Shown: piece by piece, positions 31,548-42,221 of the stretch
Position numbering within the stretch: position 1 is the first letter of the stretch
How the letters are laid out: each line of letters begins with the position of its first letter
Assembly: GCA_029863625.1 (NCBI GenBank)
Contig: JAOTUY010000001.1
Location: 82,046 to 146,045, forward strand
Length of the DNA stretch: 64,000 nt
Source of the DNA: Acidimicrobiia bacterium
GTDB taxonomy: Bacteria; Actinomycetota; Acidimicrobiia; Spongiisociales; UBA4744
Direction: 5' to 3'
Translations under genes and position numbers: made by a program
Notes under the pieces: generated by a model
What the model was told of the DNA's origin: nothing
Databases searched by the model: none
What the model saw: only the letters and a program-made list of their open reading frames with translations

Positions 31548-31645
31548 TAGCTTCCAGCTTCGAGCCTTCCCAGCTTCCGGCAGCTGGATGGCTTCGCTCC
31601 CAGCATCCCGCCAGAACAGTGGTTCGCTGGTTGCTGGTCGCTGCT
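31548..31645. repeat. Copy B of the roughly 100-bp intergenic repeat
   Basis: Same ordered blocks as 12643..12745. Lies between the DUF192 gene and rpsF. Confidence 0.6.
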
Positions 31646-39247: not shown

Positions 39248-40498
39248 TCAGCCGTCTCTTTCGGCCAGCTCCCGGAACTCATCCGGCACTGCGCCGGTCT
39301 CGGACAGGGCGACCGAGGCATACCCAACGGCCTTTCGTCCGAACCGATCCCGTACCCCGTCGACCGACCGGTCGAGTGCCCAGAGAGCGGCGCCGGCGAC
39401 GGTGCCCGGGCGCCGTTTCTCCTCGCCGATATCGATGGGAAGTTCGAGCTGCAATGCTGCCTCGTAGACCAGGTGCGAAACAGAGATCGCCAGAAGCGTG
39501 ATCACCCGTTCTTGCGGATGATCGTTCAAGGCCGTGGTCACGAGGGAATACGCCACCTCAGCGAGAATCGGGGTGGCCGAGATGGCCGCGGGAAGGGTGA
39601 TCGATCTGGTTACCGACTGCATTTCCGCGAAACGCACCCTGACCGTGACGGTCTTGCCCGCTCGCTCCTTGGCGCGCAAGCGGGTCGCTACCCGGTCGGC
39701 GAGATGGCGCAGCGTCATGCGGATCAGCGTGGTGGATATCGGCTTACGGCCCAGTGCCGACTGAGCGCCAACCGACCCGGCCCGGTGCGTCGTCTCGATG
39801 GCGCGGGGGTCCTGGTTCCAGGCCAGCGATCCGAGTTTGGTGCCGACGGCTCGCCCCAGCAGGTTTTCGAGTGACCGGCCGGGGGTGGCGGCGAGCTCGC
39901 CGATCGTTGTGATGCCCCGTTCGGCCAGACGGGCCTGAGTAACGGGACCGACCCCCCACATGAGACCAACCGGCAGGGGGTGAAGGAAATCCAACTCTTG
40001 CTCGGGTTCAACGACGATGTACCCGTCGGGTTTGGCCACCTGAGAGGCAATCTTGGCGAGATGCTTGGTGCGGGCGACACCCACCGACACCGGTAGCCCT
40101 GCCTCCTGACGGGTGCGTCGCCGTATCTCGATGGCCATCGACTTCGGTGAACCAAACAAATGTATGGAGCCGGCCACCTCGAGGAAGGCTTCGTCGATGG
40201 AGATTCTCTCCACCAGCGGGGTGAAGTCTCGCATGATGTCGATCACCTGATCGCCCAGGCGTTGGTATTCGGAGAAGTGACCACCAACGAATCTCAGATC
40301 GGGGCAGAGCTCACGGGCCCGGCGCCCGGCCATGCCCCCTCGGACTCCGTACTTTTTGGCTTCGTAGGAGGCGGCCAGCACTACGCCGCCCCCGACCGCG
40401 ATCGGTTTCCCGCGCAGTGACGGATCGAGGAGTTGCTCCACCGACGCATAGAAGGCGTCGAGGTCGGCGTGCAGAATGGTGGCTGCGGCCGTAGCCAT
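39248..40498 (-). CDS. dinB: DNA polymerase IV (Y-family)
   Basis: ILHADLDAFYASVEQ, SIDEAFLEV and little-finger domain. ATG at 40498. A LexA box lies 16 nt upstream. Confidence 0.85.
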   Translation of the reverse strand: MATAAATILHADLDAFYASVEQLLDPSLRGKPIAVGGGVVLAASYEAKKYGVRGGMAGRRARELCPDLRFVGGHFSEYQRLGDQVIDIMRDFTPLVERISIDEAFLEVAGSIHLFGSPKSMAIEIRRRTRQEAGLPVSVGVARTKHLAKIASQVAKPDGYIVVEPEQELDFLHPLPVGLMWGVGPVTQARLAERGITTIGELAATPGRSLENLLGRAVGTKLGSLAWNQDPRAIETTHRAGSVGAQSALGRKPISTTLIRMTLRHLADRVATRLRAKERAGKTVTVRVRFAEMQSVTRSITLPAAISATPILAEVAYSLVTTALNDHPQERVITLLAISVSHLVYEAALQLELPIDIGEEKRRPGTVAGAALWALDRSVDGVRDRFGRKAVGYASVALSETGAVPDEFRELAERDG

Positions 40499-40513
40499 AT
40501 ACGGGCATCCTAA

Positions 40514-40529
40514 TCGAACATATGTTCGA
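40514..40529. promoter_or_regulatory. LexA (SOS) box TCGAAC-ATAT-GTTCGA
   Basis: Perfect match to the mycobacterial/actinobacterial SOS-box consensus TCGAAC-N4-GTTCGA, directly upstream of dinB. Confidence 0.7.
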
Positions 40530-40973
40530 TTGCTTTGAAACCCAAGGCCGTGGTCTTGGCGTAGAGATCCCAAGCCCCGCTGGCCGAACTTGAACATTAG
40601 GACAAGGCCGACTGCCGCCGCGATCCCAAAGGTCGCTCCGGTCGTGGGAGCTCCGGCGGACACCAGGGCTGCCGCCGCCCCTCCAAAGAAGATGATCTCC
40701 ACGGCGACCCGCGCCGATTCCCCAGTCGCTTGGACGCCTTGGGGGCGATGAACCTACCCAAGATGCTGGCGGCCACAAGGGGGCGACCACACCCAGGAGG
40801 ATTCGTGTGGTCGCGTTTGGCCCGGTCTGCCAGCCCCAATAGGCCAGCCCGGCCAGCGCGCCAAGCTGGAGTAGGAATCGCAGAGCGAGGTTGATCGACT
40901 TCACAGGGAACATCGTGCCACCAGGTGTCGGGTGGGGGTTGTCGGGTGCATCTGCAGGCTGTTGTTGAACCAA

Positions 40974-41008
40974 GAATGAATGAACGTTCATAATGAACAT
41001 TCATTCAT
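40974..41008. promoter_or_regulatory. 35-bp near-perfect palindrome (AATGAACGTTCAT / AATGAACATTCAT units); putative repressor operator
   Basis: GAATGAATGAACGTTCATAATGAACATTCATTCAT seen directly. Lies 15-50 nt upstream of the SDR start at 41023. Confidence 0.5.
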
Positions 41009-41022
41009 GGAAGGACCTCATC

Positions 41023-41967
41023 ATGGCCTGGACGGCCGACGATATTCCCGATCAGACGGGACGGGTCGTGGTAGTAACCGGTGCCAATGGAGGTTTGGGT
41101 CTCGAGACGGCCCGCCAGTTAGCGCGCCACGGCGCCCTCGTCATCATGGCCGCCCGCAACCTCGAGAAGGCCCGAACTGCCGAGCAGGACATTCTCTCGG
41201 GAACCCCGGCCGCCTCTCTGGAAGTCCGATCGCTCGACTTGGCCTCACTCGACTCGGTCCGGCAGTTCGCCGGCGCGGTCACGGCGGACCATCCGGTCAT
41301 CGACATCCTGGTCAACAACGCTGGAGTGATGGCTCCTCCCCGGCGAGAGACTGCCGACGGTTTCGAGCTTCAGTTCGGTACCAACCATCTCGGCCACTTC
41401 GTCCTTACCGGCCTGCTCATGCCCGCCTTGCTCCGTTCGAAAGCGGGGCGGGTCGTGACCGTCACCAGCACCGGGCGGCACGTGGGAGGGCGCCTCAATG
41501 TCGATGATCCTCACTACAAATCGGACTATCAGCCGTGGACCTCGTACGGCCAGTCGAAGATGGCCAACTTGCACTTCGGCGTCGAGTTGAACCGCCGCTT
41601 GCAAGCCGCCGGTACTACCGTCGAGAGCCTTGTTTCCCATCCCGGCTTCTCGAATACCGACCTTCAGGCACAGAGTGTGGAGGCCACCGGCGGTGGTGTG
41701 AGCCAGCGGTTCTTCCATGTCGCGGTCGGCTGGTTCGGGATGACCCCGGCCCGGGGAGCTTTGCCACAGCTGCGGGCCGCCACCGACCCGACGGCCAAGG
41801 GTGGGGAGCTGTACACCCCTCGTTGGGCAAATCGGGGTTCGCCCGTTCGTAGACCGATCCTCGCCAGGTCCCGCAAACCCGAGGATATGCAGGCGCTCTG
41901 GGAGCTGTCCGAGCGAGAGACCGGGATCCCGTTTGATGTTGAGGGTCTTGTGAAGGGAGCCGATTGA
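41023..41967 (+). CDS. Short-chain dehydrogenase/reductase (SDR) family oxidoreductase
   Basis: VVVVTGANGGLG and NNAG match the SDR family. The second-domain YGQSK is YxxxK. Start chosen at MAWTADDIPDQTGR. Confidence 0.8.
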   Translation: MAWTADDIPDQTGRVVVVTGANGGLGLETARQLARHGALVIMAARNLEKARTAEQDILSGTPAASLEVRSLDLASLDSVRQFAGAVTADHPVIDILVNNAGVMAPPRRETADGFELQFGTNHLGHFVLTGLLMPALLRSKAGRVVTVTSTGRHVGGRLNVDDPHYKSDYQPWTSYGQSKMANLHFGVELNRRLQAAGTTVESLVSHPGFSNTDLQAQSVEATGGGVSQRFFHVAVGWFGMTPARGALPQLRAATDPTAKGGELYTPRWANRGSPVRRPILARSRKPEDMQALWELSERETGIPFDVEGLVKGAD

Positions 41968-42221
41968 GCCCGGTCACGGTACGGGTCGACCGGGCGGCCC
42001 TGGTCGGGGCATTGCTCGAACTCGTGGCCGAACGCGGGTTTCAGGTGACGTCGATGGCGGCGGTGGCCGAACGAGCCGGGGTGGCCCCCGGCGCGGCCTA
42101 TGTGCGCCACGCCTCCAAGATGAGCTTGTCTGGGCGACCTATCTGGAACAAACCGCTCCTCGTCGATCTGCCGATGCTGGTCCTGTACGACCAGGGGATC
42201 GGACCGGCTGTCAGCGTGTGA
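41964..42221 (+). pseudogene. TetR-family regulator, frameshifted and truncated (HTH domain only)
   Basis: Canonical TetR HTH FQVTSMAAVAERAGVAPGAAYVRHASK. The expected continuation DELVWATYLEQ is in the +2 frame, consistent with a 1-nt deletion at about 42119. The opposite-strand gene begins at 42261, so a full-length TetR cannot fit. Confidence 0.6.

Follow-up and report, generated by a model that had tools for sequence, protein, structure and literature searches.

In Mycobacterium tuberculosis, mutagenesis established TCGAAC(N4)GTTCGA as the 16-bp consensus recognised by LexA and ChIP-seq corroborated it (PMC3381160), and the SOS boxes of the LexA regulon are located in promoters (Davis et al. 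2002, Smollett et al. 2012, PMC3381160). Control of dinB genes by LexA is not universal in the phylum, since dinB1 and dinB2 of M. tuberculosis are neither damage-inducible nor RecA-dependent (Kana et al., to the extent that their work is cited in PMC4176160) and since the names and locus tags of both genes are absent from the text of the LexA ChIP-seq paper (PMC3381160). In M. smegmatis, dinB3 was induced 3.7-fold by the quinolone ofloxacin, and dinB1 and dinB2 were not induced (PMC11653572). Streptomyces provides another precedent for an actinobacterial Pol IV gene under a Gram-positive-type SOS box, namely dnaE2-dinB2 (dinP), which is damage-induced and bound by LexA in ChIP-seq and SPR (PMC3273824, PMC9380542); the motif obtained for S. 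venezuelae LexA by ChIP/SPR is tCGAAC-N4-GNNCGa (PMC9380542). The Pol IV gene of Escherichia coli, dinB, also has a LexA operator at its promoter (PMC4176160), but that operator is of the CTGT-N8-ACAG type and the E. coli DinB has no C-terminal extension (PMC6511836).

Here we analysed a 64-kb stretch of actinobacterial DNA (the window) in which a dinB gene is preceded by the perfect palindrome TCGAACATATGTTCGA. This palindrome is very probably a LexA operator, i.e., a SOS box of the Gram-positive/actinobacterial type, and forms part of the promoter of a putatively leaderless dinB. The consensus and the promoter location are those of the M. tuberculosis boxes, with zero mismatches, but the box stands on a dinB of another subfamily (NF003015) and in another class, Acidimicrobiia. 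Unlike the Streptomyces arrangement, in which dinB2 comes second in the dnaE2 operon and imperfect boxes precede dnaE2, the dinB of the window is monocistronic, with a perfect box of its own, a putatively leaderless start and no dnaE2 next to it.

The palindrome and the dinB promoter

The first-pass annotation had described a perfect palindrome 16 nt upstream of a Y-family polymerase gene and an exact match to the LexA operator consensus of mycobacteria, and these observations were confirmed. The 16-bp palindrome is present (Table 1) and agrees with the M. tuberculosis consensus at 12/12 specified positions (PMC3381160), and it fits the S. venezuelae motif as well. Between its proximal edge (40514) and the A of the dinB ATG (40498) there are 15 nt, so that the distance is 16 nt, and counted from this A the box extends from about -31 to -16. 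The minus strand encodes dinB, which the annotation had not given. The idealised consensus of the Cheo box of Bacillus subtilis, from a different phylum, is CGAACATATGTTCG, and the central 14 bp of the palindrome are identical to it.

Table 1. Features at and around the dinB promoter, in window coordinates.
Feature	Position	Strand	Basis or remark
SOS box (predicted LexA operator), perfect palindrome TCGAACATATGTTCGA	40514..40529	.	unique exact match and conservation
Putative -10 hexamer TAGGAT (TANNNT)	40507..40512	minus	sequence and orthologue conservation
dinB start codon ATG, probable 5' end of leaderless mRNA	40496..40498	minus	aligned orthologue starts
dinB, 416-aa Y-family DNA polymerase IV, subfamily NF003015/PRK03858	39248..40498	minus	profile matches, motifs
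C-terminal extension of DinB (~70 aa, residues ~347-416)	39248-39460	minus
Decayed DUF2568-like small membrane-protein gene	40568..40913	minus	intact homologue in L002; directly upstream of box
33-bp near-perfect palindrome ATGAATGAACGTTCATAATGAACATTCATTCAT	40976-41008		two 12-bp palindromes 13 bp apart
SDR oxidoreductase gene	40993-41967	plus
Truncated TetR_N gene (85 aa)	41964-42221		after the SDR gene
GAAC-N4-GTTC core GAACAGTGGTTC	31614-31625		intergenic, flanks off consensus

The window contains no second exact match to TCGAAC-N4-GTTCGA, and no other 16-mer in it comes within one mismatch. Dinucleotide-preserving shuffles gave a mean of 0.02 exact matches per window (2/100 shuffles had one), and base composition alone predicts 0.0025. 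Matches with two mismatches numbered 15, as compared with 3.9 expected from the dinucleotide shuffles (shuffle maximum 10). Most of them have altered GAAC/GTTC cores and appear to lie inside coding regions, and none has a promoter context; the excess (~4x the shuffles) is probably a higher-order codon or compositional effect of coding DNA.

The window has four further cores of the exact form GAAC-N4-GTTC, two of them in coding sequence (915 and 59479) and one in a tRNA-Gly gene (52932). The fourth, GAACAGTGGTTC, lies ~190 nt upstream of the rpsF (TTG 31801)-ssb-rplI-dnaB cluster and may be due to chance. A weak LexA motif has been considered possible at the dnaB promoter of M. tuberculosis (PMC3381160). 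The 64-kb window holds no second convincing SOS box that would define a regulon, and the SOS genes lexA, recA and ruvC were not found within it.

On the minus strand the promoter reads TCGAACATATGTTCGA-T-TAGGAT-GCCCGTAT-ATG, i.e., the box is followed by 1 nt, the hexamer, 8 nt and the start codon. This layout recurs in the 15 actinobacterial loci compared below, 14 of which have a TANNNT hexamer 0-1 nt past the box and then a start codon after 6-8 nt. The variants were TAGTAT, TAGGAT, TAAGAT, TATGGT, TATGAT, TATCAT, TACACT, TAGGGT, TAACCT and TAAGCT, so that only T-A...T is kept at its positions across orthologues. The hexamer fits a -10 element. We considered whether AGGA within TAGGAT could be a Shine-Dalgarno sequence and rejected this, because the orthologues retain T-A...T while the purines vary.

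A generic sigma-70 scan, which needs a -35 element, did not call the dinB promoter, and no recognisable -35 is present there. Leaderless mRNAs and promoters with a -10 element only are abundant in Actinobacteria, and our interpretation leans on both: with 6-8 nt between the putative -10 and the start codon there is no room for a leader or a Shine-Dalgarno sequence, and the dinB mRNA is therefore probably leaderless, with a predicted transcription start at or near the ATG. The annotation had placed the box over the likely -10 or leader. The proximity to the -10 was correct, but the box abuts TAGGAT from 1 nt away instead of overlapping it, and a leader would not exist.

This anatomy implies that the operator would cover the promoter spacer and the -35 region. 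In the undamaged cell, a LexA dimer would occupy the two TCGAAC half-sites directly upstream of TAGGAT, over the spacer and the -35 region, and would exclude RNA polymerase from the dinB promoter. Upon DNA damage, RecA-ssDNA filaments would stimulate the self-cleavage of LexA, the operator would be vacated, and transcription of dinB would then begin at the ATG or no more than 2 nt from it. The analysis directly shows the sequence of the box, its position and conservation, and the identity of the gene; we infer the -10, the transcription start, binding by LexA and the induction of dinB by damage.

LexA could also bind here without simple repression, either silently or with positive regulation as at whiB2 of M. 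tuberculosis, a species in which LexA ChIP-seq has revealed examples of both positive regulation and binding without apparent regulation (PMC3381160). The geometry at dinB, with the box directly upstream of the -10 and over the spacer and -35 region, is instead that of classic occlusion. In addition, dinB is a canonical SOS function, and the strict position of the box relative to the -10 and the ATG points to promoter control; we consider non-repressive binding very unlikely.

A nucleic-acid hairpin, e.g., a terminator for the DUF2568 gene upstream or a structure at the 5' end, in place of a protein site, would be compatible with the 8-bp stem and 4-nt loop that the palindrome can form within a local fold of -19.7 kcal/mol. 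The stability of this fold is, however, not significant when compared with shuffles (z = -1.66; 14/200 shuffles fold as well), no U-tract follows the box, no terminator was called there, and the putative transcription start is downstream of the box. Moreover, loci whose upstream gene is divergent or of another kind conserve the box just as well, and in the 15 loci the GAAC/GTTC contacts never vary and no compensatory changes were seen. A hairpin is accordingly among the least probable explanations of the palindrome.

The gene downstream of the box encodes a polymerase of the Y family, as the annotation had stated. The protein matched the Pfam families IMS (3.8e-47), IMS_C (2.2e-19) and IMS_HHH and the NCBIfam model NF003015, 'DNA polymerase IV', at 559 bits (cut-off 367), and solved Pol IV chains in the PDB were matched down to 1.4e-55. 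An independent gene call (ENA ERZ27296398, contig k141_2277686, 195 kb) has the same start and the same length of 416 aa. Both catalytic motifs are intact, LHADLDAFYASVEQ with D12/D14 and the D-E pair in SIDEAF, as we read them against the motifs of E. coli DinB, and an aromatic residue, Y17, stands at the position that we align with the E. coli steric gate. The intact motifs mark the protein as an active-type DinB and set it apart from inactive, ImuB-like homologues. DinB3 of M. smegmatis (msDinB3-like group, PMC6511836) is likewise an actinobacterial Pol IV paralogue with canonical catalytic residues. Within the C-terminal extension, residues 374-399 (ALDRSVDGVRDRFGRKAVGYASVALS) resemble the N-terminal part of Pfam DUF4113 at a score below the cut-off (E = 0.015, 15.7 bits). 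This part of DUF4113 is a RecA-NT-like motif that has been proposed to bind RecA in UmuC-like polymerases (PMC6511836).

Conservation across dinB loci and the identity of the regulator

The palindrome was compared between the window and 14 further actinobacterial dinB loci (15 in total). By identity of the encoded DinB to that of the window, these were nine loci at 85-92% (L001-L009), four at 72-76% (L075, L076, L077, L079) and one at 45% (L012), of which the first 13 belong to an Acidimicrobiia-like clade (72-92%) and L012 is outside it. The loci at 85% or more and the one at 45% came from a contig scan by exact peptide words, and those at 72-76% from four look-ups added to narrow the gap that the scan had left between 85% and 45%.

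A box was present at the same position in 15/15 loci. Its 14-bp core CGAACATAYGTTCG is invariant apart from one central Y position, and variation is otherwise confined to the outermost positions, so that the GAAC/GTTC contacts are never changed. The majority base had a mean frequency of 0.96 within the 16-mer, as against 0.44 in the 30 bp upstream of it. The genes upstream of dinB differ from locus to locus and include DUF2568, a divergent aldehyde dehydrogenase, HpaB, DUF2804 and adenosine deaminase. Judged from these alignments, the module of box, putative -10 and start codon travels with dinB, because its upstream neighbours change, and the conserved box is a clear phylogenetic footprint of a predicted protein-binding site.

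These data bear on whether the palindrome could be a product of chance or a non-functional relic. A single site without partner sites in 64 kb would be in keeping with such an origin, and the over-representation of two-mismatch matches in coding DNA does indicate some compositional bias. In contrast, an exact match is hardly expected by chance in a window of this size, and chance would not leave the site invariant in every locus while its flanks are at background identity. The alignments effectively refute a chance origin, to which we assign almost no probability.

Seven of the loci (L002-L005, L007-L009) share a further conserved sequence, CCAGGCTATC, ~70 nt ahead of the box. It accompanies aldehyde dehydrogenase genes that are divergent from dinB, for which it probably serves as the -10 (TAGCCT, on the other strand), and is not present in the window.

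The best relatives of the window's DinB (85-92% identity) are encoded by MAGs labelled Actinomycetota, Actinomycetes or Acidimicrobiia (e.g., UBA4744), and dozens more homologues at 72-78% identity are labelled Acidimicrobiia. The G+C content of the window is 60-69%, and its genes include the rpsF-ssb-rplI-dnaB cluster, hrpA and inositol-1-phosphate synthase. Based on the DinB relatives, the G+C content and the gene content, the window is actinobacterial and belongs to a class other than that of the mycobacteria. The close kinship with mycobacteria suggested by the annotation is thus not borne out, the nearest relatives being Acidimicrobiia/Actinomycetota MAGs. Its actinobacterial assignment was correct, but the box, which it had cited in favour, contributes little to it: the palindrome also fits the general Gram-positive motif GAACN4RTTY (PMC3273824), and similar boxes occur in Clostridia. 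Since Cheo-type boxes are shared, the motif alone cannot separate Actinobacteria from Firmicutes.

More distant dinB homologues carry other motifs. Two DinB orthologues from Rhizomicrobium (Alphaproteobacteria; 65% identity) have an exact GTTC-N7-GTTC at -39 and -43, two betaproteobacterial homologues, one from Burkholderiales and one from Rhodocyclaceae, have an exact CTGT-N8-ACAG upstream, and five Clostridia homologues are preceded by Cheo-related boxes of the CGAAC-N4-GTTCG type with at most one mismatch. We take these three motif types to be those of the LexA proteins of the respective groups. LexA is then the simplest regulator, because the motif changes in step with the LexA type of the host.

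The Rhizomicrobium boxes (L010, ~2962; L011, ~2958) stand in place of the palindrome. Their DinB proteins are at 65% identity to that of the window, as compared with 45% for the next actinobacterial match outside the clade in the same scan. This likeness could reflect a cross-phylum transfer with replacement of the operator, or a bias of the search.

The palindrome might instead be the operator of a different transcription factor that recognises GAAC-N4-GTTC. By tblastn, lexA and recA were found neither in the 64-kb window nor in the fetched Acidimicrobiia loci, and the absence of lexA from the window is in line with such a factor, as is the different palindrome 450 bp away (40976-41008), which indicates that other regulators act in the region. 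Against it stand the full agreement with the LexA consensus (PMC3381160), the occurrence at the same position of proteobacterial orthologues of the LexA motif of their own phylum, and the lack of any regulator gene consistently linked to dinB over 14 loci, whose neighbours all differ. There is consequently little reason to invoke a factor other than LexA, and we rate this explanation as improbable. The LexA reading of the annotation is supported by the consensus match, by the invariance in 14 other loci and by the host-type motifs of the proteobacterial orthologues.

We also infer that a LexA repressor is present in this genome; LexA and RecA have been reported in Acidimicrobiales genomes (PMC10205998). 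A further argument for LexA as the regulator comes from MAGs of Omnitrophota, WOR-3, Ratteibacteria, Patescibacteria and others, whose dinB homologue has a full-length lexA as its immediate upstream neighbour, about 250-900 nt away (L018-L020, L028, L029, L031, L033, L034, L037, L038 and others), and these pairs look like lexA-dinB operons. Timinskas and Venclovas have noted lexA next to Y-family polymerase genes for some operons (PMC6511836).

Sequences adjacent to the box

What remains of a DUF2568-like small membrane-protein gene lies directly upstream of the box. This remnant is frameshifted twice, near a C5 run at ~40783 and a G4 run at ~40722, and has also lost its stop codon (TGA to GGA at 40568-40570); as a result its frame runs on into dinB and creates a spurious 484-aa ORF (39248-40702). 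This ORF was rejected as the true dinB, given that its N-terminal extension is the out-of-register tail of the decayed gene and that the orthologues and the independent gene call both start at the 40498 ATG. The remnant has intact counterparts in L002 (1055-1492), and in L001 and L006 they stand upstream of dinB. A second assembly (L074) has the identical remnant sequence, and the independent gene call has no gene at this position. The remnant is not part of the operator.

Further upstream, ATGAATGAACGTTCATAATGAACATTCATTCAT forms a near-perfect palindrome of 33 bp that extends over both the predicted -10 (CATAAT) and the start of an SDR oxidoreductase gene; a truncated TetR_N gene comes after the SDR gene. 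We considered this palindrome as a second LexA site and rejected it, since its half-sites are ATGAAC|GTTCAT without the N4 spacer and since it lies on the promoter of the SDR gene, which a TetR fragment follows. It is probably the operator of a TetR-family regulator, unrelated to LexA, and searches of the related loci examined did not reveal it.

Significance for Acidimicrobiia

The current understanding of the SOS response is unchanged by this locus. Knowledge that LexA controls dinB is as old as the name of the gene, and E. coli is the founding example (PMC4176160). The case is a monocistronic, putatively leaderless NF003015 dinB with a perfect box of its own in Acidimicrobiia, and its kind is already known. 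A bolder scenario, which we regard as rather unlikely, is that NF003015 DinB, with its RecA-NT-like tail and in Acidimicrobiia always with a perfect SOS box joined to a leaderless promoter, is the main SOS mutagenic polymerase of the lineage, Pol V-like and activated by RecA, and replaces UmuDC or ImuA-ImuB-DnaE2; under the same scenario, dinB would also have moved between Actinomycetota and Alphaproteobacteria, its operator being rewritten to the LexA motif of the new host. Our results add a well-supported in-silico member of the LexA regulon for Acidimicrobiia, an actinobacterial class that is poorly studied and largely uncultured, and suggest that the Gram-positive-type SOS box is used unchanged in this class. 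The compact module of operator, -10 and leaderless start could seed a genome-wide search for the regulon in Acidimicrobiia MAGs.
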